From a virus, in UHGV virus genome UHGV-0090440: a stretch of DNA of 64,000 nucleotides, one strand, 5' to 3'. The notes below the pieces were generated by a model, which had not been told where the DNA came from, ran no database searches, and saw only the letters and a program-made list of their open reading frames with translations. Positions 2,593 to 48,699 of this stretch are shown one piece after another (the first letter of the stretch is position 1; each line of letters begins with the position of its first letter). The position numbers and the translations under genes are program-made.

Positions 2593-2626
2593 TGTGTTAG
2601 AAAATATGCGTTAATTATCTAACACA
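2593..2626. promoter_or_regulatory. paired operator-like motifs (TGTGTTAGAAAAT ... ATCTAACACA) upstream of the rdgC-like gene
   Basis: Inverted pair of the dispersed TGTTAGAAA / TTTCTAACA motif, 10-40 nt upstream of the rdgC start on the minus strand. Confidence 0.45.
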
Positions 2627-2640
2627 AATGGGTGCATTTT

Positions 2641-3294
2641 CTATCCTTTCTTGAAATCGAAGTTGCCAGCAGTGGCCTGAAAGGTTCCCCCTGCCTTGAA
2701 AGCTATGTCCCCGTTAGCGGTGACAGCAATATTTTCCCCATTAACATTGATGTTGTTGGCTGATTTGACGTTAACACTCCCTCCTGCATTCACGATTACA
2801 TCAGCCGGACCAATGATATATATCTGCCCGGACTCATTCATGCCAATCCTTGAGCCTGCTGCCGTATTGGCAATTTCATAGCCGCCACCAGCAGTTCGTA
2901 CTTCAAGAATATTGTTGCGGTGAATAACGAAGTCTTTCGTTGCTGAGATTTGGGGGCGGGGAGGTGCTCCATCTACTTCCGGCGGCGTCCAGCCGCTACC
3001 ATTGCCTGACGCCTCCGGCGCGACGTTTGGAACTCCGCCAGGCGCATCCTGAGCCGCGCCAACTATCATTGGGCGTCTGGTGTCTATTCGACCGTTAACA
3101 TCTAAATAAGGAAACTCTACCCAGACCAGGTCACCTTTGACTGTAGGTACAAAAGCGTTCCCGATGGGTAACAGGTATTCCGCCCAGGGTAGATCGTCAT
3201 CAGGAACGCCATTCCAGTCAGGTAAAACACGGACTTGAGCACGCATAAGCCCTGCCGGGTGCACAGTTCCAACAATTTGCGCTCTACGCTTCAT
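2641..3294 (-). CDS. putative baseplate spike / gpV-like protein
   Basis: N-terminal OB-fold-like pattern (LPW...G..PTVKGDLVWVEF...G) typical of P2 gpV / Mu gp45-family spike proteins, followed by a Gly/Asn-rich repetitive C-terminus (NAGGSVNVKSANNINVNGENIAVTANGD). Confidence 0.4.
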   Translation of the reverse strand: MKRRAQIVGTVHPAGLMRAQVRVLPDWNGVPDDDLPWAEYLLPIGNAFVPTVKGDLVWVEFPYLDVNGRIDTRRPMIVGAAQDAPGGVPNVAPEASGNGSGWTPPEVDGAPPRPQISATKDFVIHRNNILEVRTAGGGYEIANTAAGSRIGMNESGQIYIIGPADVIVNAGGSVNVKSANNINVNGENIAVTANGDIAFKAGGTFQATAGNFDFKKG

Positions 3295-4271
3295 TTGTTA
3301 GGCACTCCCAATATCATTCGTGTTGTGTAGCCTACTCGGTCCTCAAAGTGCGCAACATTTTTTACTATCAGCTTACGGGGCATTGATTCATCAATGCGGT
3401 TTTCCTGGTCATAGCGGTATACGATAATCTCTATTACCATCCCCGGTTTTATATCAGGATTGCCTGCGACTTCTATATCCATTTTGGGGACGAGAGACAG
3501 CTGCATATTGCGAAGAGTTTCCATATCAGAGTCGGATATATAACGCACTGGGAGTGAGCTATCGCCATATTCGACGTAGCCATCGGTCATGGAATACCCA
3601 ACAAAACGATATTGATTCTTTGCTGTTGTCGCATGTTCCTGTTGGAGTAGGCGCATTTTGGACAAAGTGTATTCTGCTTTAGGGTTATTCCCCTCGTAGG
3701 TAAATGATGGCGTTTGCTTCATCAGATCAGCCAGGGTGTAAAAGTTAAATTCCCCCCGACATACCCAACACAATGCACCTTTGTCTCGCGCTATCTCCGA
3801 AAGCATTTTTGACGGTTTGTCACCAGCATTCAGATGATATGTAACTGCGCGTTTTAGCACGCTGCTGGTAATTTTAAGTTTGCCGGAATATGCCTTGAAT
3901 ATAGCGTCTGGTGTTTTGTTGGTATGTAAATTTGTGCGCGGGGAGGGGATCTTAAACCTGCGCACGTCTTCACTGACAGCAATAACGGTAACAACATCAC
4001 CAGCCAGCATTGCAGACGTAACAAAGAAATCTGTTTTAAAAGTGCCAGCATTACCGTTTGGATCGCCCATTTCAGCCACCAGCGATGCACCGTATTTGGC
4101 TTTCCAGTCATCAATTACGGTGCCGGTAGCGTCATGAATTTCCAGTTTTAGCAAAGGGGCTTTGAGGCAGGTTTTTTCTACATATACTGCGGTAAAAATC
4201 CAGTCTCGTGGCACTTTGTTATCGTTAATGAGCACTGACTGTAGAAAATATTGTTGTAACTCCTGGGCCAC
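3291..4271 (-). CDS. hypothetical protein (possible virion/baseplate module)
   Basis: 326-aa ORF, stop overlaps the start of the spike-like gene (translational coupling); no recognisable motif. Confidence 0.35.
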   Translation of the reverse strand: MAQELQQYFLQSVLINDNKVPRDWIFTAVYVEKTCLKAPLLKLEIHDATGTVIDDWKAKYGASLVAEMGDPNGNAGTFKTDFFVTSAMLAGDVVTVIAVSEDVRRFKIPSPRTNLHTNKTPDAIFKAYSGKLKITSSVLKRAVTYHLNAGDKPSKMLSEIARDKGALCWVCRGEFNFYTLADLMKQTPSFTYEGNNPKAEYTLSKMRLLQQEHATTAKNQYRFVGYSMTDGYVEYGDSSLPVRYISDSDMETLRNMQLSLVPKMDIEVAGNPDIKPGMVIEIIVYRYDQENRIDESMPRKLIVKNVAHFEDRVGYTTRMILGVPNK

Positions 4272-4274
4272 TTA

Positions 4275-5042
4275 TCACCCCATAGATATCGAGGTTTCGG
4301 TAATAATACGTTTTGCGTCCAACTCCCATGCTGTGATCACGTCTGCAATCACACTTATCGGCGCTTGTGTGGCATAAATACGCTCTTCTCCAATTGGTGC
4401 TGAAACATCCGTAAAGCCGACTTCTTTGGCATCCTGTATCGAGCAAATCAGCGGGACCGGGACACGAACAAGGTGAGTGGTTGCTTCAAATTGTGTACCT
4501 GTCATCAGGCGAAGCCGTGCGCCCAGCGAATTACACATCAGACTCATGGTCGCTTTATCAGTTGCCATTAACGTAACGTCATACGTCAGAATGGCCTGGG
4601 TGTATTCCAGTTCTGCTAAAGGCGTTCCGCTATCTGGTTCGCAAAAACTGGCTACTTTTTTGCGGTCAATCTGCTGATCATCGTTGATATAATTGATATC
4701 CATAGTGCGTGAGATATTGACCAGGGGGAGAGCATCCCGGTTAATGTTCTGGTTTTCAGGTTTTCTCCCTTGCCCGGCATTTGCGCGACGAACTGCTTTA
4801 AGAAACTCGATCGCATTGTCGAAACGGGCCATATAGACACGCTCTGCTGGTGGACGATTCAGGAATGACGCAAAGCGTTTTTCTTCCGGCGCGGGGGCCA
4901 CCAGTAAGATATCAGAAAAAATGTTGCTGATTAGCGTCGCAAACGCGTTATCCACGTTTTCAAAGCCCGTGGTCTGGAATTTTCCTGTGCGTAAGGTTTG
5001 CCATTCACCGGTTCGCGCCAGGAGGGTTTTATTTGACGTCAT
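4275..5042 (-). CDS. hypothetical protein
   Basis: 255-aa ORF in the same tightly packed minus-strand operon. Confidence 0.35.
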   Translation of the reverse strand: MTSNKTLLARTGEWQTLRTGKFQTTGFENVDNAFATLISNIFSDILLVAPAPEEKRFASFLNRPPAERVYMARFDNAIEFLKAVRRANAGQGRKPENQNINRDALPLVNISRTMDINYINDDQQIDRKKVASFCEPDSGTPLAELEYTQAILTYDVTLMATDKATMSLMCNSLGARLRLMTGTQFEATTHLVRVPVPLICSIQDAKEVGFTDVSAPIGEERIYATQAPISVIADVITAWELDAKRIITETSISMG

Positions 5043-5872
5043 TCGATCACTCCGTTTTGAGTCGTATCAAAATTCCTGGCAGGTATGCAGTAATAAAGCG
5101 AACCAACATGCTGTGTGCCGTAGCTAAAAATACGGTGCACGTACCACCAGCGGCGGGCTACGCCGTTTACCATCTCTTCATTCCATTCAAGAATTGAGCC
5201 GACGGGGACGTTATTTGCTGCAATACGCAGAATCAGAACATCATCGGTTAAGCCATCCTGCTCACCGTCTGCGTCAATTGCATGGAAAGAGTCACGCCCG
5301 TCAGGGTTATCCAGCACATAAACGATTTCAGGTTCCTGGTAAGTCAGTTCGCGTTGGTTGTTATCCAGTTCAGTGAATGACTCTTCTCCTGTTTCGTCGC
5401 TGACTACCCCATATGTGCCAACATCTGGTCGATATAAGAGAGCCTGAAACGCGTCTGGGCTGGATTCAATAATCAGCATCCAGTCTGCGCGGATTTGGTC
5501 ATTAAAGGCTTTATGCCCGTTATAGCGTGCTTTTAACTGTGGAGTCGGTTCTCTGCCAGCCAGGGAAGGTGGAAGTATGGCTATATCTGATTCGCCAGCG
5601 TCCGGAGTAAGGCCACCGTTGCTATCAGCAAAATTATCATGGCTATCAGCTTCGGCGGTGGATTGCTCTTCCAGAATGCTGAATGAATCCGGTCCGGCAT
5701 TGCCATGTTCCGGCGCGCTTCCTGCATCCGCTTCAACCGTCGCTGGCGTTTCTCTCTGCGTGCTGTCATGTTCTGACTCCTTACTTGCCAGGTTTGCATC
5801 GTCAGCAAACCATTCGTCAAAACGGCCCATAAGCATCCTCAAAGGTCGATTTATCAGGTATCGAGGGTGCAT
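5039..5872 (-). CDS. hypothetical protein with acidic low-complexity N-terminal half
   Basis: 277-aa ORF, first gene of the minus-strand block; D/E/S-rich N-terminal region. Confidence 0.3.
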   Translation of the reverse strand: MHPRYLINRPLRMLMGRFDEWFADDANLASKESEHDSTQRETPATVEADAGSAPEHGNAGPDSFSILEEQSTAEADSHDNFADSNGGLTPDAGESDIAILPPSLAGREPTPQLKARYNGHKAFNDQIRADWMLIIESSPDAFQALLYRPDVGTYGVVSDETGEESFTELDNNQRELTYQEPEIVYVLDNPDGRDSFHAIDADGEQDGLTDDVLILRIAANNVPVGSILEWNEEMVNGVARRWWYVHRIFSYGTQHVGSLYYCIPARNFDTTQNGVIE

Positions 5873-5909
5873 TATCTGGAGATTGTGATTTCAATTCATA
5901 TCCCGGCAT

Positions 5910-6675: not shown

Positions 6676-7872
6676 TCAAGAACCTTTCTTCACGTACTCC
6701 ATAAACATTTTTTCAGCTTGCTCAGGTGACGTTCCTGCCATGACCAGTGCATCAATGAACGCCTGCTTCTTCAGTGCGAACTGATCGGCAAGGCGTTGCT
6801 GAAGTTCCTTATTTTTCTGTTTCTCACGTTGCAAGGCCGCTTCTTTTGCAGCCGCCCGTTTTTTCTGTGCGTCTGACAACTTTCTGGCCCTGGTCAGCTG
6901 GTCACGTAGCTTGTCAATCTTCCCGTTGTCCTTTGCCAGTTTTGTACTTAAAGCGGCCTGGCGCTTCTGATAGAGCCTCCATTCGCGTTTGGCGGCTTCA
7001 ACGTTCGTTTTACTGCTACGATTGCGATTAAACTCCTTCTCGTCTTCTTTTGAGAAGTGTTTAGTTGTACGGCGGCGATCGTCACCAAATGCAATTTGCG
7101 TTGCAGCCTTTTGTAGCGCACGAGCAATACTCATTTGCCAACTGGCGGACTGTAACCGCGTCATTGAGTGGATCACGTGTTTACAGGCGACGCCTTGCAG
7201 CTTCGGGTTGCGAACTTTTGGATAGGCGTATTCTTTTGGCGGTGCCAGGGCAAAGTTACCCGCAGTGGCGATGTAACGATACCAGTATTGATGACGACCA
7301 CAGTCACAATCGAAAGACACTCGCCCGGCGCACAGTGATTTAGTGATTTTGAGAGCTGATTTATCGTCTTCTGCGATGTCATCAACCATCTGATCCCATT
7401 CTTCAAAGCGTATCCGGACGATATGGTGCTGGTGGACGGATATATCCGATGCTTCTACGCGGATATTAATCACATTGTGGCGAAGAGATACGGGGGTAGC
7501 TCTTTTGATACCAGATCCGTCATCCACGGCGTTATTTGCACGCTTAATATCGATTGCCTGGCTGGATGCCACCAGCTGGGCGTATGTGATGCCAGCCGTC
7601 TTGCTGTCATATTTTTCGCGCGTTTTACTCCGTAGCTTTTCGAAACCTTTCAGGTCGTCTCGCGTGAAGAACGTGCCGCCTTTTTTCTTCCCTAACTTGA
7701 GAATATCTTCGGCGGATTTGTTCCTCAGTCTACCTGGCGTCAGCGTCCGGTGAGCTTGTCGGCGCTTACGGGTTTGTTCTTTCCTGATAATCTCGAATAA
7801 ACGCGTGAAGTCCTTAGAGGACAGGCCGTCAGTGATATAGCGCCCGTCCTGGTTTTTCAGGAAATCAGGCAT
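6676..7872 (-). CDS. hypothetical protein with SWIM-type zinc-finger motif and K/R-rich coiled-coil C-terminus
   Basis: CxCx(n)CxH pattern (FDCDCGRHQYW...CKHVIH); C-terminal 120 aa highly charged and coiled-coil-like. Confidence 0.4.
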   Translation of the reverse strand: MPDFLKNQDGRYITDGLSSKDFTRLFEIIRKEQTRKRRQAHRTLTPGRLRNKSAEDILKLGKKKGGTFFTRDDLKGFEKLRSKTREKYDSKTAGITYAQLVASSQAIDIKRANNAVDDGSGIKRATPVSLRHNVINIRVEASDISVHQHHIVRIRFEEWDQMVDDIAEDDKSALKITKSLCAGRVSFDCDCGRHQYWYRYIATAGNFALAPPKEYAYPKVRNPKLQGVACKHVIHSMTRLQSASWQMSIARALQKAATQIAFGDDRRRTTKHFSKEDEKEFNRNRSSKTNVEAAKREWRLYQKRQAALSTKLAKDNGKIDKLRDQLTRARKLSDAQKKRAAAKEAALQREKQKNKELQQRLADQFALKKQAFIDALVMAGTSPEQAEKMFMEYVKKGS

Positions 7873-8194: not shown

Positions 8195-8387
8195 AACAAA
8201 GCCTCTCAGTCATAACCTGGGGGAAACTGTATGCAGGGTGTGAAATGCGAGAAACAGACAGGCCACCAGTTCAGGGGGATGTGGTTCATAAATCCCCTCA
8301 CTGGTGACAAGTGACTTTCATTAATCTTTATGCGGGGGCCAGCTTCATTTGCTGGCATTAGATTAAAAATTAAACGGAGTGAATGAC

Positions 8388-8522: not shown

Positions 8523-9176
8523 TCAAAGTATCACGGTATCTTCATCAACTTCTTTCCCAGTCAGTGTCTTTGGCTGGGAGGTGCCTGCTTTAACTTTTTC
8601 ATGCCCAATAATGGACAGGAACGAAGCGAGTATGCCTGTTTTTTGCTCTTTCTCGACTGTACCGGTCATCTGCTCTACGTAATCCGCACTGGCTACATTG
8701 TGGTATACGGTCGCGTAGCAACACAGGATCATCAAAATATGCTCCGGCCTGATATCCTGCCAGTTCACCCGGTAGACTTCTTCTCCGTTACCGTTGTATT
8801 CGGTGTCAACGATGGAGTCAGGGATTTCGAAAGCACCTTTGTTATTTTGCGGCAGGGATAATAGCTTCTGGAGTTTTAACTCTCTGTATCTTTCCATCCC
8901 GACGATGATTGCTGCTCTGCCATCGGCATGACGGGTCTTGAGAGTCACCTGGCTTGCTCCGGTGCCAGCGGAGATCGTTGGCGTAATTTCGTCTACCAGT
9001 ACCTTAAATTTGCTTTTCCGCAGGGCTGCTATAGCTGGAGGAATTTTTTGCTTTTGCTCCAATGCTGACGCGGGAAGGGGTTTTACTTCGTTAATAATGA
9101 GAGCACCGTCTTTCAGTATTGCAGTGAGCATTTGAGGCTTGCTGGTGGTCAGGCTGAATATTGCGATCTTTTCCAT
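8523..9176 (-). CDS. hypothetical protein
   Basis: Start taken at MEKIAIFSL (ATG 9174-9176) with a GGAGGAAGG RBS; the ORF-track extension to 9218 runs into a terminator hairpin. Confidence 0.4.
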   Translation of the reverse strand: MEKIAIFSLTTSKPQMLTAILKDGALIINEVKPLPASALEQKQKIPPAIAALRKSKFKVLVDEITPTISAGTGASQVTLKTRHADGRAAIIVGMERYRELKLQKLLSLPQNNKGAFEIPDSIVDTEYNGNGEEVYRVNWQDIRPEHILMILCCYATVYHNVASADYVEQMTGTVEKEQKTGILASFLSIIGHEKVKAGTSQPKTLTGKEVDEDTVIL

Positions 9177-9202
9177 TGTCCTTCCTCCACGGATGACGGA
9201 TA

Positions 9203-9228
9203 CAAAAAAAGGCCGCACATGGCGGCCT
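9203..9228 (-). terminator. rho-independent terminator (minus-strand orientation)
   Basis: On the minus strand: GGCCGCCATGTGCGGCC hairpin followed by TTTTTTT. Confidence 0.5.
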
Positions 9229-9444
9229 GCTTTGGCGTTATGACTCCCTACCGCGCTTCGGCTGAAAGTTAATCGTCAAAAGAACCTTCAACGGGAGCCG
9301 TTAGCGCGATGGATTATGTGCAGTTTGTGATTTCCAAAATAGTGTCAACCACTTTTGGTGGATTTTATTTTTTAACCGAAATTTGGCCTAAATCATGTTT
9401 ATGTAGTTAATTGTTTTTATAACATAAAAATTCATTTTGTTTGC

Positions 9445-10068
9445 ATGAAGGATGGTGTAGTGAAGTTAAGGGCTTTAGGGGCCGCGCTCGCGGCTATGTT
9501 GGGATGCGTATCTGCTAATACTGCCAATGCAACTGCGTTACCTGCACAATTCAGGGCAGGGCAGCAGGTTATGAATAACGCTGGTGGAGATCATTCACAA
9601 GCGGCCATTATGGACTTTTGCAAGAGGGAGGGCATTCCATTACGGCCTGTTGGAACTCAGTTTATTGGTAAAACTGACTTTTGCGTTTTTGCATATACAG
9701 CATATCTGACGGACAAAGCTATAACAAAAACAGGTTATTCAACCAAAGATACTCTTTCCAGATTAAGTCAGGGATGGCAGCAATTCGAAGTGTATCGCCA
9801 GCAAGGATTAGGTGAGTTATTGCAACCTCTTTTTATGCTTGCGTTGGTGCCAGAGGGGCAGCAATTTTTGGTTAAAAAGGGAATGCTTCGCCAAAGTGAT
9901 ATTGCCGGGTTCGATAGCATGATGGCTTATGAGCGCAAACTAACCGAGCAGCGAAATAAAAAACCATCTGCTTCATGTGTGCAAAGTAAAACAGCAGAAT
10001 ACAGTGCAGTAGCCGGGCCTTTAGCCAAACAAATGGCAGAGCAATGGTGTAAAAAATACGGGCAATAA
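9445..10068 (+). CDS. secreted protein of unknown function
   Basis: N-terminal signal-peptide-like segment (LRALGAALAAMLGCVSANTANA); preceded by an AT-rich intergenic region. Confidence 0.45.
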   Translation: MKDGVVKLRALGAALAAMLGCVSANTANATALPAQFRAGQQVMNNAGGDHSQAAIMDFCKREGIPLRPVGTQFIGKTDFCVFAYTAYLTDKAITKTGYSTKDTLSRLSQGWQQFEVYRQQGLGELLQPLFMLALVPEGQQFLVKKGMLRQSDIAGFDSMMAYERKLTEQRNKKPSASCVQSKTAEYSAVAGPLAKQMAEQWCKKYGQ

Positions 10069-10088
10069 GTTACGCAGCGGAGGCAGAA

Positions 10089-10481
10089 TTGAAAAGATTG
10101 GCTATTGCTTTACTGGCGTCTTTCCCTTTGATCGCGAGCGCCGGAAATTTACAAGTTAAGTGCGGTCGGTTTGATATAAAAATCTATCCAGATGCCATAT
10201 TTCTGAATGGGAATAAGGTTGATAACGCACACCGAAAAACTGAATCTGACGTAATGAGCTATGTGTTCCAGGAGTATGCGGAGATGGGGGGAACTTACAC
10301 GCTGTACTCGCTGGATGTTCCTTCTCGCGGTGATATGACATTATCCCATCAATGGCAGAACGCCGATGGCGAAGCTCTGCGCGAGGTTAAAACAGAAAAA
10401 TGTGGCACTTTCCATTCTTTTAAAGGGAAAGCGCCAAATGTTAAATCTGTGCTTGAAAAACAGCGCGCAGGTGAGCTTTAA
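10089..10481 (+). CDS. secreted protein of unknown function
   Basis: Signal-peptide-like N-terminus MKRLAIALLASFPLIASA; RBS GGAGG 8 nt upstream. Confidence 0.45.
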   Translation: MKRLAIALLASFPLIASAGNLQVKCGRFDIKIYPDAIFLNGNKVDNAHRKTESDVMSYVFQEYAEMGGTYTLYSLDVPSRGDMTLSHQWQNADGEALREVKTEKCGTFHSFKGKAPNVKSVLEKQRAGEL

Positions 10482-11367
10482 ACACCTTTAACCACGGAGA
10501 TGCCGTTCCCTGCACGATAGCGGCGGGGAACGGAATTCTCCATCAGGTCACGAATTACTCCCGCCTCATGTAGTTCCACTGTTTCCCAGTATCTGTTTGT
10601 CGCCAATTACGCCCCGTTCCGCCAGGGGAAGGTATGAACGAGCTTCTGCTTCGGTTGCAGCCATGACGCAGATATACAGGTGTTTTTGGCAGGAATAGAA
10701 ACGCCAGATAAATTCAGAATGAGTTGGGGTGGGGATAGTAGCGATATTGGCAGCCTCCTTTGACTAAGTTAAGGAGCTACCGCGTGAGGTTCCAATCCCG
10801 GCACCCGTTTTTCTAAGGTGCCGTAGAAATATACCCCACGATAAGGCCAGGGCGCAAAAGTCAGTATTTTATGCTTTGGCGGATTTCTTCCGGGCTTGCT
10901 TGCAGGCGTAGGCCATTGCTTTAGCTTTCACTTCATCCAGCTTCCCGGTGATCACTTCTTTTCCGAGAGTGACAAACCAGTCATAGCAACCGCCAGTGAT
11001 GTTCTGGATTTGAAAGTTGAGGTAGCGAACGGTCATTTTGACACCCCCAGCGCGAGTAAAGAATGCAGATTATCGCGTGAGTGGCGGACAACGAGTGACG
11101 GGAAAAGACAGTAGCTGTTCATAGTGTAGTGACTCCTTGCTTTCGGAGCCGCCATCGACTGTTCCACGGTCTGGTGGCGGCGCAATAAAGGCTGGAACAC
11201 CGTGAGTCAACGGGGGCTTTTCAGCCACCTATATTGCACCGCCATAGGTATGGCGGCGGCAATAATACGAAAAACTATACAGTTTGTCTCAAAAAGTTGA
11301 CCGGTGTGCCAATCGGTAGTGAATGTACATCGGAGAAATTTATAATTCAACTTAAAATGTTAGAAAA

Positions 11368-11943
11368 CTAATTCATCAATTCAATCGCCATCTGATACAA
11401 CGTCATTTCATCAGCATTGTGCCGCCTGAAATCTGCTTTACCGCCTATTTTTCCATCAGCATGAACAGGAACCAACCAGGGGTATTGCTCGCGGATCTCT
11501 GCTGGCGCTGCGTGTTGATGGTGCCATTTACACAAAGGGAGGACGTATTTATGCGCGTTCTCTGCTGTTCTTCCGAAGATGTGGTGCAGGGATACCACAG
11601 GGCTATGCTGTCCGTGCATATGGCAGGCAATGCAGGGGAGAGCACCGATGGCAGTTTGTATCCGGCGCTCATCTGCTGTGAGTGTTCTGCCTTTCAGGCC
11701 GCGTGACGCGCGAGTTTTTTTGACAGGAGCAGAAGCGGCCTTCTCTTTTCTTCGCTGTTCATATTGCTTCGCTTTTTCAATTTTCTTTTGACGATATTCA
11801 GGCGATGCGGCTTTTTCTCGCGCACGCTGCTGCTGGCGTTGAGCTTGCTGAAGACGCTTTGCCCTTTGTTCCTCCCGCCATTTCGGATCAGCCAGTTTTT
11901 GCAGGGCTTTTTGTGTCTGTTTCTCCCAATAGCTTTGCTTCAT
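11368..11943 (-). CDS. ref: Ref-like HNH endonuclease
   Basis: Basic, low-complexity N-terminal region followed by an HNH-type core (CIACHMHG...SLHHIFGR...LPLCKWHH), the architecture described for P1 Ref. Start taken at the first ATG (MKQSYWEK). Confidence 0.55.
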   Translation of the reverse strand: MKQSYWEKQTQKALQKLADPKWREEQRAKRLQQAQRQQQRAREKAASPEYRQKKIEKAKQYEQRRKEKAASAPVKKTRASRGLKGRTLTADERRIQTAIGALPCIACHMHGQHSPVVSLHHIFGRTAENAHKYVLPLCKWHHQHAAPAEIREQYPWLVPVHADGKIGGKADFRRHNADEMTLYQMAIELMN

Positions 11944-11987
11944 AGAAATACCCGGTTTGTCTACATAGCCGCTATGGTTGATCAAAC

Positions 11988-12020
11988 ATGTTAGAAAATC
12001 AAAATTGATTTTCTAACACA
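11988..12020. promoter_or_regulatory. perfect inverted pair of operator-like motifs
   Basis: TGTTAGAAAATC-aaaatt-GATTTTCTAACA: 12-bp perfect inverted repeats, in the divergent region between the ref-like gene and the plus-strand gene block. Confidence 0.5.
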
Positions 12021-16323: not shown

Positions 16324-16349
16324 TCAAATCATTTACGCACTCAAAAAAG

Positions 16350-16380
16350 CGTTAGAACGTTGATTTTAGTTTTCTAACAT
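16350..16380. promoter_or_regulatory. operator-like motif pair
   Basis: GTTAGAACG ... TTTTCTAACAT, 40-70 nt upstream of the 16422 gene. Confidence 0.4.
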
Positions 16381-16421
16381 ATTATTTTACCGCTCGGAAC
16401 AAAACAGAGTCGGTATACATT

Positions 16422-17430: not shown

Positions 17431-17730
17431 ATGAGTCAAGGTAATGGTGACGGAGCTGCAAAGTGCAGAATCTCCACTTGTTTGATTAATGACAAAAAAA
17501 TAGAACCGTGCGCGGCGTTGGCACAATCCCTGGAGCAGGATGCTGAATACACGACGCGGAAAGGTCTGCTGAAATACAAAATCTATAACCATGAATTAAT
17601 TCATTCACAAGACCTGATCATGCTGCGGTCAGGCGAGCTTTCTAAATCGCCGATTCGAATTTCATTTTGCCCGTTCTGTGGTGAAAGTCTGAAAACGTGG
17701 GAAGCGGAGGCAACCAGTGATCAAAATTAA
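17431..17730 (+). CDS. hypothetical protein with Zn-ribbon-like C-terminus
   Basis: 99-aa ORF; C..C ... CPFC spacing. Confidence 0.3.
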   Translation: MSQGNGDGAAKCRISTCLINDKKIEPCAALAQSLEQDAEYTTRKGLLKYKIYNHELIHSQDLIMLRSGELSKSPIRISFCPFCGESLKTWEAEATSDQN

Positions 17731-18415
17731 CTATCAAGAACTGCGCGAGGCGGCGGAACAGGCAACGCAAGATGAATGGGTAGCATATATTTTGCCGGGT
17801 CATAACGGCATTTATCCTGCGCGCACGTCTGAGGGTAGGCATTGCGGATACTTTATTGACTGGCCTGGCATTGATGGACAAAGAAATGCTGGTGCTAATG
17901 CCCGTTATATCGCGGCTATCCCACCAAAAGTTGCGCTGGCACTCCTGGGCGAAATTAAGCGCCTGGAGGACACAAATATTGATGCTATGTGCCGAATAGC
18001 ACCGCTTGAGACTAAGCTCGCGGCTCTGGTGGCAGAGAACGCCGGGCTGAAACTCGCAATGGCTGTAACTCTTAATCATGTGTCGGTCACGGATGCAGGG
18101 CAGGCCGGAGTTGCTGCAATGATAATCAACGATGCTCTGCACCACAGCGAAACCCCAGCCACCGATGCTTTTCTGGCTGAAGGGAAGACTGAAGCACGCA
18201 AGGAAGGCGCTTATTTTGTGGCGAACAGAATGTTGGCAGCCTGGAAAGCTGGTTTTATTGATGATACTGCGAAGAACGCCGCGGATATTGCCCGGATGAT
18301 CCTTACCTCTACTGAGTTTATGGCTAATGCGCCGGAAGGCGATTTTGATCGCTCATTCTCTGATGGCGTTCTCGAAGATATCGCCGAACAGCTTCGTAAA
18401 GGAGTCATCCAATGA
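17717..18415 (+). CDS. Ea22/Ead-like protein (paralogue 3)
   Basis: N-terminus KINYQELREAAEQATQDEW and C-terminal [11 protein letters not shown]...[11 protein letters not shown] shared with paralogues. Confidence 0.4.
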   Translation: MIKINYQELREAAEQATQDEWVAYILPGHNGIYPARTSEGRHCGYFIDWPGIDGQRNAGANARYIAAIPPKVALALLGEIKRLEDTNIDAMCRIAPLETKLAALVAENAGLKLAMAVTLNHVSVTDAGQAGVAAMIINDALHHSETPATDAFLAEGKTEARKEGAYFVANRMLAAWKAGFIDDTAKNAADIARMILTSTEFMANAPEGDFDRSFSDGVLEDIAEQLRKGVIQ

Positions 18416-19954: not shown

Positions 19955-19965
19955 TCACCATGCTA

Positions 19966-19997
19966 AAATCCCCTCAATTCACAGAGGGGATTTTTGT
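19966..19997 (+). terminator. rho-independent terminator
   Basis: Stem atcccctc/gaggggat with 9-nt loop followed by TTTTGT. Confidence 0.55.
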
Positions 19998-32398: not shown

Positions 32399-32562
32399 CT
32401 AAAGGGCCAGATTACTGTTAATTCCGCTTACGCTTTTTGCCAGGACCGCGTAAGGCTTTTGCTGCTTGCTCGACCCCATATACAACCACCAGCAGAAATA
32501 AAAATGTCCACCAAGGGTTCTTATCGGCAAACGTCCAAAATTCCATCATGTTCTCTATTTGG

Positions 32563-33390: not shown

Positions 33391-33607
33391 TAATCAATTT
33401 CCTGGTTTTTTCACGAAAAAAGACTACTGCAAAAGCCGGGTAAATGAGCGCGAGAAGGACTCCCAACAATACAAGTATTGTGCTGTCAGATGAGATCATA
33501 TTTGGCAAAAGCCAAACATACAGAACCAGTGACACAATCAAACAGAGGACGGCATAAATATATAGCCGCACCCATAGCGTTCGACATTTGTTCGGATTGT
33601 TCTGCAT
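33371..33607 (-). CDS. upl: small membrane protein upstream of plp (Upl-like)
   Basis: 78 aa with two hydrophobic helices; overlaps the plp start. Confidence 0.45.
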   Translation of the reverse strand: MQNNPNKCRTLWVRLYIYAVLCLIVSLVLYVWLLPNMISSDSTILVLLGVLLALIYPAFAVVFFREKTRKLINEKNVD

Positions 33608-33754
33608 CCTCTCACTCCATTATTCAACGAATAAAAAAGCTGCGGTGCCTGGTGCCTCCAGGTGACGTTAACCAGTTAACAATTAACGCCGGGATGTTTG
33701 ATTTAACCACTACGGAGGATTGTTTTAACTGTTCCGCGTGCGCTTAGCCGCATT

Positions 33755-33869
33755 CACCGCAATGGTAAGAGCACTTGGCTGGCTGGGCGGCGATGACGCC
33801 TGTACGCATTTGGTGATCCGGTTCTGCTTCCGGCATTCGCTTAATTAGCCAAATACTCTTAACGTTGCG
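33755..33869. repeat. long imperfect hairpin element U1
   Basis: Arms ccgcaatggtaagagcacttgg / ccaaatactcttaacgttgcg; abuts the 3' end of the tRNA-Ser-like gene. Confidence 0.4.
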
Positions 33870-33956
33870 CTGGCGGAGAGTAATGGAATCGAACCATCAT
33901 CGCTTGCGCAATGGGACGGTTTTCAAGACCGCTTGAGCACCATGCTCCCTACTCTC
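33870..33956 (-). tRNA. tRNA-Ser-like (anticodon TGA), class II, atypical D-arm
   Basis: Acceptor GGAGAGT/ACTCTCC with discriminator G and CCA; anticodon arm GCGGT-CTTGAAA-ACCGT nearly identical to E. coli tRNA-Ser(UGA); long variable arm; T-loop TTCGATT. The D-arm is short and irregular, so it may be a tRNA-like RNA or pseudogene. Confidence 0.4.
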
Positions 33957-34081
33957 CAATTGTTGTGGTTACCGGTACTGATCTCCGGCTTAGCGACCCC
34001 GGCTACTGACTGCATTGCAGTGTGTGAACTCGCCTCGTGTGTCGCTGGGGCATTTCTTTCCGCGCATCAGTCTGCGCATCA

Positions 34082-34158
34082 ACCACAACGGAAAGAGCAT
34101 TGGCTAACCAGGCTCGCCGACTCTTCACGATTATCGGCCCAATGCTCTTACCTGTTGT
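34082..34158. repeat. long imperfect hairpin element U2
   Basis: Arms ccacaacggaaagagcattgg / ccaatgctcttacctgttgtg (about 20 bp stem) around a 34-nt loop. Confidence 0.4.
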
Positions 34159-34340
34159 GCGCTCCGTTTCGTGGAGCTAACGGCGGGTGATCGGGCCGCA
34201 CCAGACTGGACTTATTTCAGCGTTATGCTCATGCCAGAGAATCAAACTGTGATGGTCGGTGCTGAACTCCGACACAGGGTTGTAGCAAGCCCCGCAAAGC
34301 GCGCACTACTGTAGTTGCGGCACATCAGCCTGTGCATTCA

Positions 34341-34435
34341 CCACAATGTTGAGAACACTGGTTGTCACGCTGCCTCGCGACCTTTATTCATAGATTGGGA
34401 TATGACCCCGTTACGCCAATGTTCTCAACGTTGTA
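34341..34435. repeat. long imperfect hairpin element U3
   Basis: Arms ccacaatgttgagaacactgg / ccaatgttctcaacgttgtag; stem differs from U2/U4 by compensatory changes. Confidence 0.4.
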
Positions 34436-34574
34436 GTGCCGGTTACGGTTCCGGCCAGGCTTCTTCCTCAACGGGGTGTTCTCCATACGGACTACCGTTT
34501 ATTGGTCGTTCCTGCGGTTTATGTTGTGAAGCCAGATGCTTATCTTCTGGTTGCTTCAAAGAGCTGCACTTCAT

Positions 34575-34661
34575 CACAACGGTAAGGGTACTTCGTAGGG
34601 ATTCGAACCCTCTGCCAAGCTCGGCGATCTCCGACGTCGCAAAATACCCTTACCTGTTGTG
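34575..34661 (-). ncRNA. hairpin element U4: long stem enclosing a tRNA-like T-arm (candidate small stable RNA)
   Basis: Arms cacaacggtaagggta / tacccttacctgttgtg; the loop on the minus strand contains AGGG-TTCGAAT-CCCT, a canonical T-arm. Lies directly 3' of tRNA-Thr on the same strand. Confidence 0.35.
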
Positions 34662-34662
34662 T

Positions 34663-34738
34663 TGGTGCCGGTTAACGGACTCGAACCGCTGACATCCTGC
34701 TTACAAGGCAGGCGCTCTACCAACTGAGCTAAACCGGC
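34663..34738 (-). tRNA. trnT: tRNA-Thr (anticodon TGT)
   Basis: 76-nt cloverleaf: acceptor GCCGGTT/AACCGGC, D-arm GCTC-AGTTGGTA-GAGC, anticodon loop CTTGTAA, T-loop TTCGAGT, 3' CCA. Confidence 0.75.
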
Positions 34739-34742
34739 AATT

Positions 34743-34829
34743 TGGTGGGGAGTGATGGAGTCGAACCACCCGAGTCGCAATGACAGTAGATTTACAGTCT
34801 ACCCCGCTGCCCCTACGGACTAACTCCCC
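34743..34829 (-). tRNA. tRNA-Tyr (anticodon GTA), class II
   Basis: Acceptor GGGGAGT/ACTCCCC, anticodon arm GTAGA-CTGTAAA-TCTAC (identical loop to E. coli tRNA-Tyr), long variable arm, T-loop TTCGACT, CCA end. Confidence 0.55.
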
Positions 34830-34834
34830 TAAAT

Positions 34835-34909
34835 TGGCGATGGTGGGTGGATTCGAACCACCGACCAGTTGGTTAACAGCCAACTGCTCTACCGCTGAGC
34901 TACACCATC
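34835..34909 (-). tRNA. trnA: tRNA-Asn (anticodon GTT)
   Basis: 75-nt cloverleaf: acceptor GATGGTG/CACCATC, D-arm GCTC-AGCGGTA-GAGC, anticodon arm GTTGG-CTGTTAA-CCAAC, T-arm GGTGG-TTCGAAT-CCACC, CCA. Confidence 0.75.
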
Positions 34910-35762: not shown

Positions 35763-35966
35763 AAGATGTGCATTGATGATTAGATGCAGCATGTACCGTT
35801 ACTCTCTGCCGGACCATCATCAATGAACACCTTAAAAAGACCTTCCGTGGCTCAACATGGACTGTCGTTTACTCCGCAAAGTGCTCTCTCTGAAACCACT
35901 TTCCGCACTAAACCTGCTGAATTTTGGCCTGCACGGTGCCAAAGCGTGCTCTTGCGTTACCATACT

Positions 35967-35977
35967 TTTCTAACGCT
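35967..35977. promoter_or_regulatory. operator-like motif TTTTCTAACGC
   Basis: Copy of the dispersed motif inside the ORF-free region. Confidence 0.3.
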
Positions 35978-36062: not shown

Positions 36063-36121
36063 CAAGGAAAATTCTATGTTAAGTTACCTTCACAATCAAT
36101 ACATTCGAATCGTAATTTTAG

Positions 36122-36133
36122 ATTTCTAACACA
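36122..36133. promoter_or_regulatory. operator-like motif ATTTCTAACACA
   Basis: Immediately 3' of the stop codon of the 36134-37342 gene, at the edge of the ORF-free structured region. Confidence 0.4.
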
Positions 36134-37342: not shown

Positions 37343-37370
37343 TGCTGTTCCCGTTACCTTGTTAAATTAG

Positions 37371-37380
37371 TTTTCTAACA
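37371..37380. promoter_or_regulatory. operator-like motif TTTTCTAACA
   Basis: About 25-35 nt upstream of the 37342 start (reads ATGTTAGAAAACTAA on the coding strand, the same as upstream of the 26474 gene). Confidence 0.4.
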
Positions 37381-37422
37381 TATTTTATTAGTTTGATGAC
37401 GGTAGCGAAAGATGCAATAAAC

Positions 37423-38402: not shown

Positions 38403-38414
38403 TTTCGCTCTATT
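38403..38414. promoter_or_regulatory. operator-like motif TTTTCTAACACA
   Basis: In the intergenic region upstream of the VRR-NUC gene. Confidence 0.35.
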
Positions 38415-38604
38415 TTCTAACACACCCATTGATAGTAAATATGCAAAATAATAACAACAACGTTAGGTTTGTAGAATAAGAGAGATACTACTCAAGGATC
38501 ATCTATATGCAACAGGTCGGATGTCCTTTTAAGGTAAAGCGTGACCTTAATCAACAAGGAGGGTAAATCGCATGGCATTTACCCAACCTGTTATTTTTAA
38601 AGGG

Positions 38605-45300: not shown

Positions 45301-46250
45301 TCCGTGTCGGGGATCATCTCCAGGAAGGTTTCCGGGTGTTTACGCAATACCCATACGTCCACCACGGTATCTGTACCGGATTCGCTGAACGTACCGGAAG
45401 GCATACGATGTGCGCCCAAAAATTCCGCTTTACGGCTGACTTTATCGCGCAATTTTTTATATTTCGTACCATCGGTCATGCCATTCGGCACCACCAATAC
45501 GATAAGCCCACCAGGCTTAACCTTGTCGATCGTGCGCAGCACAAAGTAATTGCCAACGTTCTTCTCGTTTGCATATGCCGGATCAAGCCCGGCGACACCG
45601 GAACGCCCTTCACCAAACGGTACGTTACCAACAGCGTGATCATACATTGCGTCTTTCGCCGCCAGCGCCTCAAACGCCCCGATATTCACATCGTCTTCCG
45701 GGTGCAAAAGCTGGTTTATTCGACCGGAAATCGGAGACAGTTCGGCGCTGGTCATTATCATGCCCTGTCGTTTTGTCTCCTGGAAAATACCTGTGCCCGC
45801 TGATGGTTCCAGTACGTGCCCGCCATCAATACCGTAGTCAGCAAACAGATCCCATATACCTTCAGCCATAAACTGTGGCGTGTAGTATTCGTATTGGCTG
45901 CCCTCACCATCTGTCAGGCCGCCTTCACCGGTATACCCGGCAAGAATCTGACGCTGTTCGTCAGTTAATTTCGCCCCATCGAAGCCGGGCGGAAGGGAAT
46001 TAAGAAGCTCTACTGCGGCGTTGTTTGCTGCCCGCCGTGTTTTTTGAATACTGACACCATCGACTTTCTTAACGCCAAAGGTCGCAACAGCACGTAATTT
46101 ATGCAACCGGCTAACAATCTCAATCAGTTCGCCTAAGCTGGAGGCTTCACTGATTGAATGAAGTAGTTTATCCAAAGGATTACCCCCTCTAAACCGTAAA
46201 AAATCCGCTATGCGGTACGGTTGAGAGGGTATGGAGAATGTTATTTTCAC
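39333..46250 (-). CDS. darB: DarB-like giant antirestriction protein (N6-adenine MTase + SF2 helicase fusion)
   Basis: 2305 aa. N-terminus has MTase motif I (VLEPSAGTGIF) and motif IV (NVPFGE); the middle has helicase Walker A (GTGLGKTTTALA) and DEGH box (VIADEGHNYRN) plus later helicase motifs. Architecture and size match P1 DarB (about 2255 aa). Apparent GTG start at 46250. Confidence 0.75.
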   Translation of the reverse strand: MKITFSIPSQPYRIADFLRFRGGNPLDKLLHSISEASSLGELIEIVSRLHKLRAVATFGVKKVDGVSIQKTRRAANNAAVELLNSLPPGFDGAKLTDEQRQILAGYTGEGGLTDGEGSQYEYYTPQFMAEGIWDLFADYGIDGGHVLEPSAGTGIFQETKRQGMIMTSAELSPISGRINQLLHPEDDVNIGAFEALAAKDAMYDHAVGNVPFGEGRSGVAGLDPAYANEKNVGNYFVLRTIDKVKPGGLIVLVVPNGMTDGTKYKKLRDKVSRKAEFLGAHRMPSGTFSESGTDTVVDVWVLRKHPETFLEMIPDTDDSTLKSANVLWDTFLKGKWFTTEGKRFVYGDMERTSFRNTLVVKKDGRVSNESMKTALSRRFESRINWDLLGVTTQAWQGAKVGDKRLVGGIWHEFDGLQWVKDATTKSSVLDVSRYGVSTFGDLQTTFQSTNGILALSWGQISAIASDYPSVISDEVAAMIRFAGKQREKDRERIMRGALIGQLINKALDKRNLGENVDDELADAARLTAAEVAKYGPPHAIKLNDITEAGAKNWLTFTGNVNQDGEASDLLSGRLDVSKGAAGIDFTRPEQVVTHLFSDVALNPINLDDFREAFKGELPEDDDQALEYLAKFDDIAIDGYGCLLPMGRATSGDIKSKVALLVGWRDASTGERKANFERQLSKIEEKRTFTPLNKVTVNLNARWLDRRLIKEFLAEQGYDEFKYTEPDLKVENGILVSPDDYEGKDGVFTGYQLRTVNGKNGNEFKKANNKDGFLNQLENYLNGVKPRGQNANEYLDKIAQLETSFNDWLRTHPQADQIARDYNDAFNGYIPFTHSDAPLGLEGISGKRIPLSYQNEEVRRLSEDGRGIMGFGTGLGKTTTALALEAYNFETGRTKRTCIVVPKAVYQNWYHEAQSFYSADAFANMMFIGLDEVRDGDGNIQTAPVLDQDGTPRLDNDGNPITRNVVKESASAVIAQRMNMIPSSNWRTVIMTKEQFASIPLRDETIGENSQQAVFNAAEMGRLDLASGKHRDAQKKNKIKDQAANTGTAKKQNIPYFEDMNFDSVIADEGHNYRNSFGAGREAGQLAYLPNPAVSKMARDMAVKAAYMMKRHNGRGVVMLTATPLVNSPIDAFNMLSTVIPQHEWMHMGIITPDDFVRVFGKTATVQVQKISGEVEEKQGLVGFQNLDGLRGIFHRWTTLKTASDVGATVKIPDIVENTLQIPMTPEQQAAYEELRKRAQELSRGDDVTVDDEGNITREKPDDFIFSIIRDMDKVAIDPDLYASAITFQFPVELTEQVKSIANNLPKVAGGKAADDAEEAEEDATGGLVSTRTSKVVATTFSEHPNHVELRASIDLEAEILKAIADAGIDMKQVSHPIPPKYAALIENLREGLKNGKQIIFIDEKAQHQKLRRIIASALQMSEQEIGIINATTVSQAGGVKLKKVKKPTEPTPNKDGEYKEGAWETYYSKLAQYEDYLSAKNDAGLEGMEGIAADYNEGRTRIIICNKKAEVGINLHIGTTDIHHLTLPWTPASIDQRNGRGARVGSPQEKVNVHYYCGKGTFDDFRLDTLKRKKDWIKMVMTSDMSEIANGDADDADERAIMLAANPEERRAIMARQSKEREERLRLKAQREANNALDNYLKAANAAGKDIGMMEAELKSAMEQAQRYQSDLDGLIKSGTNKNGQKYTLSALSKAKKRVRELRFAITRAKDADTVMKRSRGDVERAIKSGVLDISIDVIQNPQEYMRTGKNILLHKGSYYRAVIDAEYETTAIVRVTQIEGEKAQYTCRVAWLDRASRHSRSPGSTMTLPFDSVVEAVTFEEGVAESREIAARGVQSHQLSTSLSRDQFYDAIRSGVMRVTGRDRGGWQGAPDVNYWAYRNANGQIQMAFTYGGMIGQKISASGSDEIAPEQWIYPDVNDEALKREVAKIQTGDNPLRISEAEGFLRALFGFDYEQGMEAWGAQATMDDVVKAFDGWMAGRDLSGRSLEKVTQEDVRSLFRKPNGEGLETYWRGVLSFRDFQGRMKAFTNGSEISQMFEQLRTSKITTKIEKTRMALNAWRDALFDQYKMQSDADGWASLASLAGQSVYSAQLSISNADNPLETSATVWIKAGALIHAFEDKSITRDDFADADSLNRLVGMAIRHANALKAGGYVEELPDALKSATWDDFVSLKNSGATESEIAERLAAAKTEREEQADAAENKADEAANDDYIIVVNDKPIRAKARVRGRWWSVSEDAGAVYLIADMPGSSSIRNAKDAIKKIGGRFWNFEVNPVADVDFDRPAWMVSTRYSIDEVRKIIEAAA

Positions 46251-46325
46251 GGGGACGATACTACCGTCAAAATCACATACTCCCCATAGTTTGCCTACTT
46301 ATTAACCAATGACCGGAAAAAAAAT

Positions 46326-46811: not shown

Positions 46812-47467
46812 AAAAAGCCCCGACCAGGCCGGGGCATCACGCTTCAAGTCACGATCCAATCATTACCGACTATATCAGCCGTCGATAAATCAACTTCCCG
46901 GATCTGGAGTCCATCAGTGTGCCTCCGCAATGCTGGGATTGGTAATATTGCGATACCAGGGATTAGTGTTTGGTTGTGGGGAAGTAGAGAAACGACCAGT
47001 AAGAACACCATACTGATCAGGGATCAGAGAACGGGCTTCTTTTTCGGTTGCGGCAATTGCGAAGTGATCGCAGTGTTTTTGCAGGGAGTGGAAACGCCAG
47101 ATGAATTCTGGACGTGAGCAAGGATTGGCATTAACCATAGTTACGGCCTCACTAACAGGTTTAACAACCTGCTACCCGCTGTCAAACAGGTGGCAGGACG
47201 TGACAGGGTTGACAGACTGGCGTTAGTGAAACCAGCAGGCCGAAGCCTCCCCATCACGCCCCACCATAATTCGGGCGTAACGCGATTTACGGACACAAAA
47301 ATACCGCAATATCGGAAATCTGCGGTTGTCCGCACTAACATTCAGGCTGTCAAACCTGGTCGCAGAATTTGCTACGACGGCATTAATATAAGCCTGAAAA
47401 CATGGAAGATCAACTAAAAATTTCAGCAATGGATGACTTCAGTCGATGATGCAGATCATACATTCCG

Positions 47468-47498
47468 ATTTAGAAACAGGAAATTAATTTTCTAATAC
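47468..47498. promoter_or_regulatory. operator-like motif pair
   Basis: TTTAGAAACA ... TTTTCTAATACA. Confidence 0.35.
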
Positions 47499-47551
47499 AA
47501 ATCATCGAGCGAGCATTTGCCGATCATTGGGAAGTTTTGTAGGCACACAGG

Positions 47552-48514
47552 TCATCCCCTAAATCCCGCAGGGATTGACCAATCCTCCCGGTCAAATTCA
47601 GACCGATAGCCACGCTGTTTCATCAGGTCAAAGGCTTCACCAATGGTTGCACACCCCTGGGAGCCAGAATAATCCATTGAGAAATCCAGGACACTGGATT
47701 GTTTAGGCTTATTCACTGCGGTAGCGGCACTACGTATCCATGCAAATTTTTTTGCCAGCTTTTCAGCGGTACGATACAGAGCCTGCCGTTTTGCGTGCCC
47801 CTCGTCTGAACGACGCTTTGCAGCTCTCGCTTTTGCCGCCGCCAGGCAGCGGTTGGTATGTTCTTCCCTGATTACTGGTTTTTTATCCAGCGCCCCATTA
47901 TCCGCTTGAGAACTATCTGCTGGTGAAGCCTTTGGCTGAACCGCGCATGATCTTTCTCTTCTTTTTGCTATAGAGTGACTCTTATTTTCTATTGGCTGTT
48001 CATTTTGAACATGGGGGGACTTGTTCAAAATGAACAGGGGGTTCCCAGTTTCAAAAAAATAACGAACCTTTGAAATCAACTGCTTAACCAGTTTTGTGGC
48101 GTTGGCAAATTTGATGCCCTGCTTACCCCCTATCTCCATTGCTGCATGAATGAAGTGGAGAAATTGTGTCGTAAACCGATATACGTTACACACCTGGGCA
48201 TTGTTATTCGCTACCTGATGTTGCCTAACAAGCATTCCGCACTTCGTCGCTTCAGCAAATGCCCGGCGTACAGTAGAAATACTGCGTCCTGTAATCTCGG
48301 ACATATCAGCATATGAGCGACGGATCATGTATTCATCGGTAGCCCCTGCCAGGTTGGCGAACTCGGCAATAATAGCGCTATGTGAAGGGGAAAGAAGACC
48401 GCTATGACGAGCAAAAAAACTCAACTGATGACCTTTGATTTTTTTGTGGTATTCAGTGTTGTTTTTATACTCAGAAGTGTTGAAAGTTACTGAAACTGAA
48501 TTTAAAATATTCAT
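47552..48514 (-). CDS. hypothetical HTH-containing protein (possible replication or regulatory protein)
   Basis: HTH-like segment MSEITGRSISTVRRAFAEATKCGML; basic C-terminal half. Confidence 0.35.
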   Translation of the reverse strand: MNILNSVSVTFNTSEYKNNTEYHKKIKGHQLSFFARHSGLLSPSHSAIIAEFANLAGATDEYMIRRSYADMSEITGRSISTVRRAFAEATKCGMLVRQHQVANNNAQVCNVYRFTTQFLHFIHAAMEIGGKQGIKFANATKLVKQLISKVRYFFETGNPLFILNKSPHVQNEQPIENKSHSIAKRRERSCAVQPKASPADSSQADNGALDKKPVIREEHTNRCLAAAKARAAKRRSDEGHAKRQALYRTAEKLAKKFAWIRSAATAVNKPKQSSVLDFSMDYSGSQGCATIGEAFDLMKQRGYRSEFDREDWSIPAGFRG

Positions 48515-48575
48515 CAGATAGTTCCGTGAAAAAATCTATCTACCGTATAAATCTATGCCAGTGGATTTATACACC

Positions 48576-48609
48576 CAAAAGCCGCTTCTCAGCGGCTTTT
48601 GCTTTTTTT
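48576..48609. terminator. bidirectional rho-independent terminator
   Basis: aaagccgct-tctc-agcggcttt hairpin followed by TTTTGCTTTTTTT. Confidence 0.6.
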
Positions 48610-48686
48610 GGCAGTCGCTACCGGAGCAGTGACCGCGATCCTACTCGATCACATCGGACAGAATCAACAGTGTATATAAATACACT

Positions 48687-48699
48687 ATGTTAGAAATTT
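48687..48699. promoter_or_regulatory. operator-like motif ATGTTAGAAATTT
   Basis: 15 nt 3' of the stop of the protease-like gene; nearly identical 20-mer to the copy at 25035. Confidence 0.4.

Follow-up and report, generated by a model that had tools for sequence, protein, structure and literature searches.

Phage D6, the sequenced type member of its lineage, is a known relative of phage P1 and is maintained as a plasmid. In P1, the operators of the C1 repressor are scattered around the genome, a design that has long been known: Op2a/b, Op21, Op51, Op53, Op55, Op68, Op72ab, Op82, Op83, Op86ab, Op88, Op94 and Op99a-e share the consensus ATTGCTCTAATAAATTT, and the P1 record (AF234173) names Oref, Omat, Ossb, Oc4 (Op51), OrepL (Op53), Orlf, Odmt (Op68), the divalent Obanab (Op72), O26 (Op82), Oppp, OpmgRa/b (Op86), OpmgT (Op88) and Olpa (Op94). 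For D6 a c1 gene is annotated, and its GenBank records (MF356679, AY753669) carry no annotated operators or promoters. The present analysis concerns a 64,000-nucleotide stretch of the virus genome UHGV-0090440 (hereafter the window, meaning the whole stretch), a D6-like element in which a 19-bp asymmetric motif recurs between genes. The motif is very probably the operator of a prophage repressor of the C1 family, encoded by the element itself at 26477-27514; the set of target genes, the architecture of the sites, the homology of the repressor, an exclusive specificity, conservation in relatives and the separateness of a late-promoter motif all agree on this reading. What is added is the likely recognition sequence of the D6 lineage and not a new kind of regulation. 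Full-text literature searches on the motif and on D6 operators returned nothing relevant; the D6 genome paper lies outside their coverage, and an earlier description in print is possible.

By megablast against phage genomes, the segment 10000-30000 matches Escherichia phage D6 best, at about 95% identity, and matches P1, P7, RCS47 and SJ46 in some genes only. A full alignment to D6 (MF356679) gives 89-98% identity across most of the 64 kb, with the gene order of D6; the summary figure for most of the window is about 95-98%. Judged by these alignments, the window comes from a plasmid prophage of the D6 type, a relative of P1.

A repeated asymmetric motif between genes

The initial annotation, made from the sequence alone, proposed a dispersed operator-like motif, and its frequency is indeed far above chance. 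The exact 9-mer TGTTAGAAA is present in 11 copies on the two strands of the window, against 0.59 expected, and none of 100 dinucleotide-preserving shuffles reached that number. When 16 copies are aligned in their own orientation, conservation extends to 19 bp around this core, in an asymmetric motif that reads T-R-TGTTAGAAA-A-Y-TAA-N-N-T. The informative columns outside the core (-2 T, -1 R, +9 A, +10 Y, +11 T, +12/+13 AA and +16 T) played no part in site selection; past the 19 bp the flanks carry no information, which marks the copies as separate sites and not as fragments of a longer repeat. A 19-bp weight matrix made from the 16 sites, applied with a threshold of at least 14 bits and Markov-shuffled sequence as background, finds 17 half-sites in the window where 0.47 are expected. 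One-mismatch variants of the core are CGTTAGAAA (26366 and 35967), TATTAGAAA (30882 and 47489) and TGTTAGATA (2616); the 19-mers at 16348-16366, 30895-30913 and 47466-47484 are weak partners within pairs.

The sites keep to the spaces between genes. All 19-mers lie outside coding sequence or overlap it by at most 7 bases, and all 12 loci into which the half-sites were grouped are intergenic in an element whose non-coding share is 11.5% (p ~5e-12), the status of site 38406 being decided by the choice of the pmgM start codon. The equal occurrence in coding sequence that would have spoken against an operator was not seen. The loci comprise five inverted pairs and seven single sites or tandem singles, so that both forms named by the initial annotation are present, and every position that it gave holds a site. 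Its list needs small corrections: the copy placed at 38403 is about 10 bases off and corresponds to 38406-38424 (9-mer 38414-38422), a good site at 11356-11374 was overlooked, and the inverted pair at 11989-12018, described as a perfect 12-bp pair, is perfect but has 14-bp arms around a 2-bp centre. The five pairs have an identical span of 34 bp, in which the AT-rich 3' ends overlap by 4 bp.

Inverted pairs could also be hairpins in RNA or DNA, serving as terminators or processing sites, with the single sites as decayed halves to which no protein binds. The pairs at 2593-2626 and 11987-12020 are foldable into hairpins of -11 to -16 kcal/mol, and several sites lie directly past stop codons. Folding is weak (-3 to -6 kcal/mol) in three of the five pairs, yet the 34-bp span is identical in all; the stems are AT-rich and lack a T run, and scans of three regions, among them the pair-bearing lpa and c4 regions, gave no terminator-like sites. 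Single asymmetric sites, in which conservation reaches 10 bp past the 9-mer on one side only, make up more than half of the loci and stay single across diverged relatives. Hairpin or terminator roles are thus unlikely, and the explanation of the whole family as hairpins and their decayed halves is scarcely credible.

Correspondence with the P1 operators

For 9 or 10 of the 12 loci, a named P1 operator stands at the corresponding gene junction (Table 1); a scan of P1 also recovered the Op99 cluster beside c1. In both elements, a homologous repressor gene occupies the same genomic slot and about 12-20 non-palindromic sites of 17-19 bp are dispersed in intergenic DNA, their targets including c1, lpa, c4-icd, repL, ref, hrdC-dmt, the transfer RNA (tRNA) operon and pmgR/S. 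Relative to the gene, a site may point either way; sites stand alone or form inverted pairs with overlapping AT-rich 3' ends, and their 3' part resembles a -10 hexamer. Their distances from the controlled genes are also comparable, lpa being an example (77-110 bp here, 71-87 bp in P1). The differences lie in the recognition sequence and in dimensions: the informative length is 19 bp here and 17 bp in P1; pairs measure 34 bp with a 4-bp overlap, where P1 Op72ab (Obanab) has 28 bp and an overlap of 6 bp; pairs are commoner here, at five of 12 loci; C1 has 345 residues, as against 283 in P1; and, unlike P1, the window has no kilA between operator and repL.

The site at 26447-26465 is identical or nearly so in D6 and in two further relatives (E. 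coli plasmid L008 and the Salmonella Typhi plasmid pK91) despite differing flanks, and is likely the site of c1 autoregulation. At the weaker site between rox and c1 (26358-26376), a three-way alignment of diverged elements shows the core TTTTCTAA kept while the surroundings diverge. A weak match at 9408-9426 has a similar weak counterpart in D6 (72195-72213), and P1 has Omat at the matching place beside LPmat; the case for an Omat-like operator here is weak.

The late operons carry a separate motif

The TGTTAGAAA sites resemble P1 late promoters in general build: a short conserved box and, at a set spacing behind it, a -10-like hexamer, here TAAAAT or TAATTT, usually with no good -35. They could accordingly be Lpa-dependent late promoters, with TGTTAGAAA as the activator box and TAAWWT, two bases on, as the -10, and a changed late box would be plausible in an element whose Lpa (Pfam PF25716) is only 31% identical to P1 Lpa. 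Their genomic positions and target genes, however, differ from those of P1 late promoters: no TGTTAGAAA site lies upstream of the late operons prt, lydA, ddrB, darB, gene 7, gene 26 or mat, and sites do lie upstream of lpa itself, c1, c4 and repL, genes that cannot depend on Lpa. The strong single sites 11356, 25035 and 48686 face away from the operons that they precede. The P1 operator likewise ends in TAAATT, which the P1 record lists as the -10 hexamer belonging to one ban promoter; this accounts for the -10 resemblance of the TGTTAGAAA sites.

The late-operon positions are occupied instead by a different and equally enriched motif, AAATMACA-N7-TANNNT, which was spotted in the upstream regions of D6 late operons and then searched for in the window as AAATMACA-N7-(T)ANNNT: seven copies were found against 0.45 expected, all seven oriented into a late operon, and their positions match P1 LPmat, LPlyz, LPpro and LPdar. 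This motif is probably the Lpa-dependent late promoter of the D6 type, and its departure from the P1 box is in keeping with the divergence of Lpa. In the P1 record, late promoters consist of AAGTNACTT, 4 bp and a -10 hexamer; that box shows no enrichment in the window (22 matches, 23 expected). The late-promoter reading of the TGTTAGAAA sites, suggested by TGTTAGAAA-NN-TAAWWT, is contradicted by the gene positions, the P1 annotation and the separate late motif, and is highly improbable. One exact P1 late box, AAGTGACTT, lies at 8309-8317 upstream of gene 26, where P1 has LP26/LPpmgL, and is also found in D6; it is perhaps a relic, perhaps a working late promoter of a second kind.

The candidate repressor and its specificity

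The C1 protein of the window is 99.4% identical to that of D6. Its similarity to P1 C1 amounts to 21% identity over 267 collinear residues (E-value (E) = 3e-8); both proteins fall in phrog_1678 (E = 2e-169 and 3e-140), and the gene is syntenic with P1 c1, lying between the recombinase/rox site and pacB. Matrix scans separate the two specificities completely: P1 contains 20 P1-type and no D6-type sites, D6 no P1-type and 18 D6-type sites (20 hits in a separate matrix scan), and the window no P1-type and 17 D6-type sites. The P1 consensus has no match in the window at up to three mismatches. The initial annotation's proposal of P1-style asymmetric C1 operators with a distinct specificity is in this way supported: the element is a P1 relative with a C1 homologue in the P1 slot and sites at the counterparts of P1 operators, and the late-promoter alternative falls away. 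On the evidence of these scans, the element follows the P1 design and is outside the P1/P7 immunity specificity.

The motif follows the repressor gene across related plasmids, of which 149 with this c1 type are found in PLSDB, some carrying resistance genes. D6 has motif sites at the same junctions as the window, plus one upstream of gene 23, which lies outside the window. The E. coli plasmid L008 has a C1 with 80% identity and retains sites at the junctions of dre, c1, lpa, tRNA, pmgS and pmgM; in pK91 (L006), a Salmonella Typhi resistance plasmid with only a fragment of the element and a C1 that is 68% identical, the sites adjoining c1 and dre are kept. In both plasmids the adjoining intergenic DNA has diverged while the sites stay. 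No D6-type sites were found in the Leclercia adecarboxylata plasmid pE1_003 (L007), whose C1 is 30% identical. That plasmid has repeats of (G)TGATCAC, which contain a Dam site and cluster upstream of its c1 (9133-9525 and elsewhere); they may be its own operator. It also holds 12 copies in 30 kb of the 9-mer GCTGGTGGA, which contains the Chi sequence GCTGGTGG.

The sites could instead be bound by a factor other than C1, from the element or from the host, such as a second repressor, a helix-turn-helix antitoxin-type protein or a nucleoid protein. The element encodes other potential DNA binders, e.g., HigA-like proteins, and Pfam recognises no DNA-binding domain in C1. Against such a protein, the set of controlled genes agrees locus by locus with the P1 C1 regulon, one site abuts the c1 start codon, and the motif accompanies the D6-type c1 allele across plasmids and is not found in P1 or in the relative with the 30%-identical C1. 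The motif also does not resemble the known consensus of the LexA, CRP, IHF or TyrR boxes. A binder other than C1 is improbable.

Several observations weigh against C1 as the reader of the sites, or against details of its action. Motif and C1 are connected by analogy with P1, and the homology of the two repressors is weak (21%); the Pfam search found no family for either C1, and the PDB search no solved structure for that of the window. Operator matrices of the D6 and P1 types resemble each other no more than column-shuffled controls do and give no evidence that the two sets of operators share an ancestor. A homologue of Lxc (Bof) was not found: orf13, at the Lxc position, belongs to phrog_6844, and P1 Lxc to phrog_2160. 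Two loci, 11356 and ppp-pdcB (16348-16381), have no exact P1 counterpart; at the latter junction, homology to P1-type phages stops inside ppp. The operon headed by the site at 25035 likewise lacks an exact P1 equivalent. Finally, in the regions of c1, lpa and c4, simple scans place consensus sigma-70 promoters near the sites and not on top of them, which leaves occlusion as a proposed mechanism.

A proposed lysis-lysogeny circuit

By analogy with P1, we infer that C1 is the binding protein, one monomer occupying each asymmetric site and two a pair, and that it acts by occlusion of RNA polymerase. In a lysogen, C1 would be bound at about 12 scattered loci and would keep off lpa (the late-gene activator), repL (lytic replication), the c4-icd immunity-bypass operon, ref and hrdC-dmt, as well as the tRNA operon, pmgS/pmgM, pdcB and the dut-isaA operon. 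The 34-bp pairs would bind two C1 molecules, as at P1 Op72ab, and the operator at 26447-26465, which stops 11 bp short of the c1 start codon, would mediate negative autoregulation. Late genes would be silent in the lysogen through the absence of Lpa; upon loss of C1, lpa would be released and Lpa would activate the late operons via AAATMACA-N7-TANNNT.

A bolder possibility, and a doubtful one, is that each 19-bp site is a self-contained promoter-operator cassette whose 3' TAAWWT serves as the -10 of the regulated promoter. The c1 transcript would then have almost no leader, its start being about 2-5 bases ahead of the ATG; each 34-bp pair would act as a symmetric promoter firing in both directions, with starts about 17 bp apart, closed by two C1 monomers; and the backward-facing sites past the dre, pro and ref stops would give rise to C1-controlled antisense transcripts into those genes. 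If so, the sites would show how a C1 so far diverged recognises a long asymmetric sequence that is core promoter DNA at the same time.

Accessory parts of the immunity system present in the window are the C4 RNA, its a1b1 targets and icd; no coi-like open reading frame (ORF) was identified there. Unlike D6, the window lacks both antirepressor genes, orf18 (Roi-like, downstream of icd) and orf82 (Rha/KilA-like), and several gene cassettes are swapped. D6 19860-20688 is deleted (at ~46910-46915 of the window), and D6 72289-75058 is replaced (window 9503-10625 region) by ORFs 9445-10068 and 10089-10481 (phrog_12786 and phrog_13864), whose function is unknown. With both antirepressor genes missing, and the C4 RNA and icd retained, immunity bypass may be disabled or may work differently in this element.

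For the D6 lineage of P1-like phage-plasmids, the analysis supplies a likely operator sequence and a map of the regulon; together with the late motif, the operators make both tiers of the lysis-lysogeny circuit readable from sequence. D6-type phage-plasmids are common in E. coli and Salmonella. The motif can be used in plasmid annotation, in predicting heteroimmunity between co-resident P1-like elements and in selecting DNA fragments for binding experiments on the C1 family, which is structurally uncharacterised.

Map of the element

The coordinates of sites and genes are collected in Table 1; gene names are those of D6, carried onto the window by tblastn.

Table 1. Putative C1 operators, late-promoter motifs and genes of the D6-like element (window coordinates; + and -, strands; bits, weight-matrix scores).
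Feature	Position	Strand	Sequence or halves	Bits	Setting	P1 counterpart	Relatives
Bivalent operator	2593-2626	+/-	2593-2611 (+) TGTGTTAGAAAATATGCGT; 2608-2626 (-) TGTGTTAGATAATTAACGC	18.0; 22.5	span 34 bp; between hrdC start (2581, -) and gene 5 stop; upstream of hrdC/C-methylase/dmt operon	Odmt/Op68, upstream of uhr-hrdC-dmt	D6 64114-64147
Candidate weak operator	9408-9426	-	TATGTTATAAAAACAATTA	10.7	between mat and ORF starting 9445		
Single operator	11356-11374	+	AATGTTAGAAAACTAATTC	25.4	directly past ref stop; upstream of orf86-orf85 and icd-like gene (-), a second icd-like operon		D6 75978-75996
Bivalent operator	11987-12020	+/-	14-bp perfect arms	22.5; 27.7	span 34 bp; between divergent ref (-, start ~11946) and orf88 operon (+, start 12063)	Oref/Op2a, ~100 bp upstream of ref	
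Bivalent operator	16348-16381	+/-	weak half 16348-16366 (+); strong half 16363-16381 (-)	9.8; 26.9	between ppp stop (16323) and pdcB start (16422)		D6 80707-80740
Single operator	25035-25053	+	TGTGTTAGAAATTTAATTT	27.3	at dre stop; upstream of orf117-orf116-dut-orf114-isaA operon (-, start 24978)	loosely Ossb/Op21, controlling ssb-isaA	kept in D6, L008 (position 3043) and pK91 (L006 position 18557)
Weaker single operator	26358-26376	-	AACGTTAGAAAACCAACCG	17.6	between rox and c1	Oc1/Op99 (rox-c1 interval)	
Operator	26447-26465	+	TATGTTAGAAAACTAAATC	26.5	ends 11 bp before c1 start codon	Oc1/Op99 (rox-c1 interval)	
Bivalent operator	30880-30913	+/-		24.6; 15.1	span 34 bp; 77-110 bp upstream of lpa start (30803, -)	Olpa/Op94, 71-87 bp upstream of lpa	kept in D6 and L008
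Single operator	35959-35977	-	AGCGTTAGAAAAGTATGGT	16.0	upstream of tRNA cluster (-)	Obanab/Op72, upstream of tRNA-tci-ban operon	
Single operator	36115-36133	-	TGTGTTAGAAATCTAAAAT	25.3	past pmgS stop, head of tRNA operon	Obanab/Op72, upstream of tRNA-tci-ban operon	D6 9066-9084; inverted pair at same position in L008
Single operator	37364-37382	-	TATGTTAGAAAACTAATTT	28.4 (top score)	between pmgR and pmgS; upstream of pmgS	OpmgRa/b (Op86)	identical in D6 and L008
Single operator	38406-38424	-	TGTGTTAGAAAATAGAGCG	18.4	upstream of pmgM	O26/Op82, upstream of pmgL-pmgM	D6 11358-11376, within annotated pmgM 5' end
Bivalent operator	47466-47499	+/-	degenerate half 47466-47484 (+); strong half 47481-47499 (-)	26.6 (strong half)	upstream of c4 antisense-RNA/icd operon	Oc4/Op51, 99 bp upstream of a1	
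Single operator	48686-48704	+	TATGTTAGAAATTTAATTT	26.9	just past pro stop; 172 bp upstream of repL (start 48514, -)	OrepL/Op53	D6 22465-22483, one mismatch
Late motif	5871-5891	-			upstream of gene 7		
Late motif	9313-9333	-			upstream of mat		
Late motif	46226-46246	-			upstream of darB		
Late motif	46270-46290	+			upstream of lysin orf16		
Late motif	51442-51462	-			upstream of prt		
Late motif	52889-52909	-			upstream of ddrB		
Late motif	56654-56674	-			upstream of lydA		
hrdC-dmt	117-2581	-					
Tail genes 5, 6, 24, 7, 25, 26, then mat and ref					after hrdC-dmt		
Early operon	from 12063	+			followed by ppp, pdcB, phd/doc		
isaA, dut and following genes		-			operon orf117-orf116-dut-orf114-isaA, start 24978		
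dre	25055-26080	-					
rox	~26233-26264						
c1 (candidate repressor)	26477-27514 (27511 in tblastn map)	+					
pacB, pacA, lpa	27545-30803	-					
tRNA cluster, then pmgS, pmgR, pmgM, ulx, darB					in this order after lpa		
C4 RNA (Rfam)	47186-47271	-					
a1b1 targets of C4 RNA (Rfam)	47339-47391	-					
icd, repL, pro, prt, ddrB, darA, lydB, lydA, cin, tail-fibre genes					in this order after darB		

The tRNA genes (Asn, Tyr, Thr, Ser and Met; ARAGORN and Rfam) lie on the - strand at 32333-34909, which fits transcription of the operon from the side where the operators 35959 and 36115 lie. In the D6 GenBank record (7145-7850), which is collinear, they are put on the + strand, in what looks like an annotation slip. 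Inside the tRNA operon, near the location of D6 tciA/tciB, is a gene for an SPFH/Band 7 protein (32563-33390, -). Two genes upstream of lpa and on the same strand, the homologue of D6 orf6 (31304-31879, -) encodes a protein with a C-terminal Tad2-like (Thoeris anti-defence 2) domain (Pfam PF11195, E = 1e-9). Over rox, a near-consensus sigma-70 promoter (26224-26251, -; TTGGCA, 16 bp, TATAAT; 11 of 12 matches) reads towards dre. In place of D6 orf100-103, the early operon carries two neighbouring Ead/Ea22-like paralogues (17717-19122, +; Pfam PF13935), one among several cassette swaps relative to D6 in this operon.

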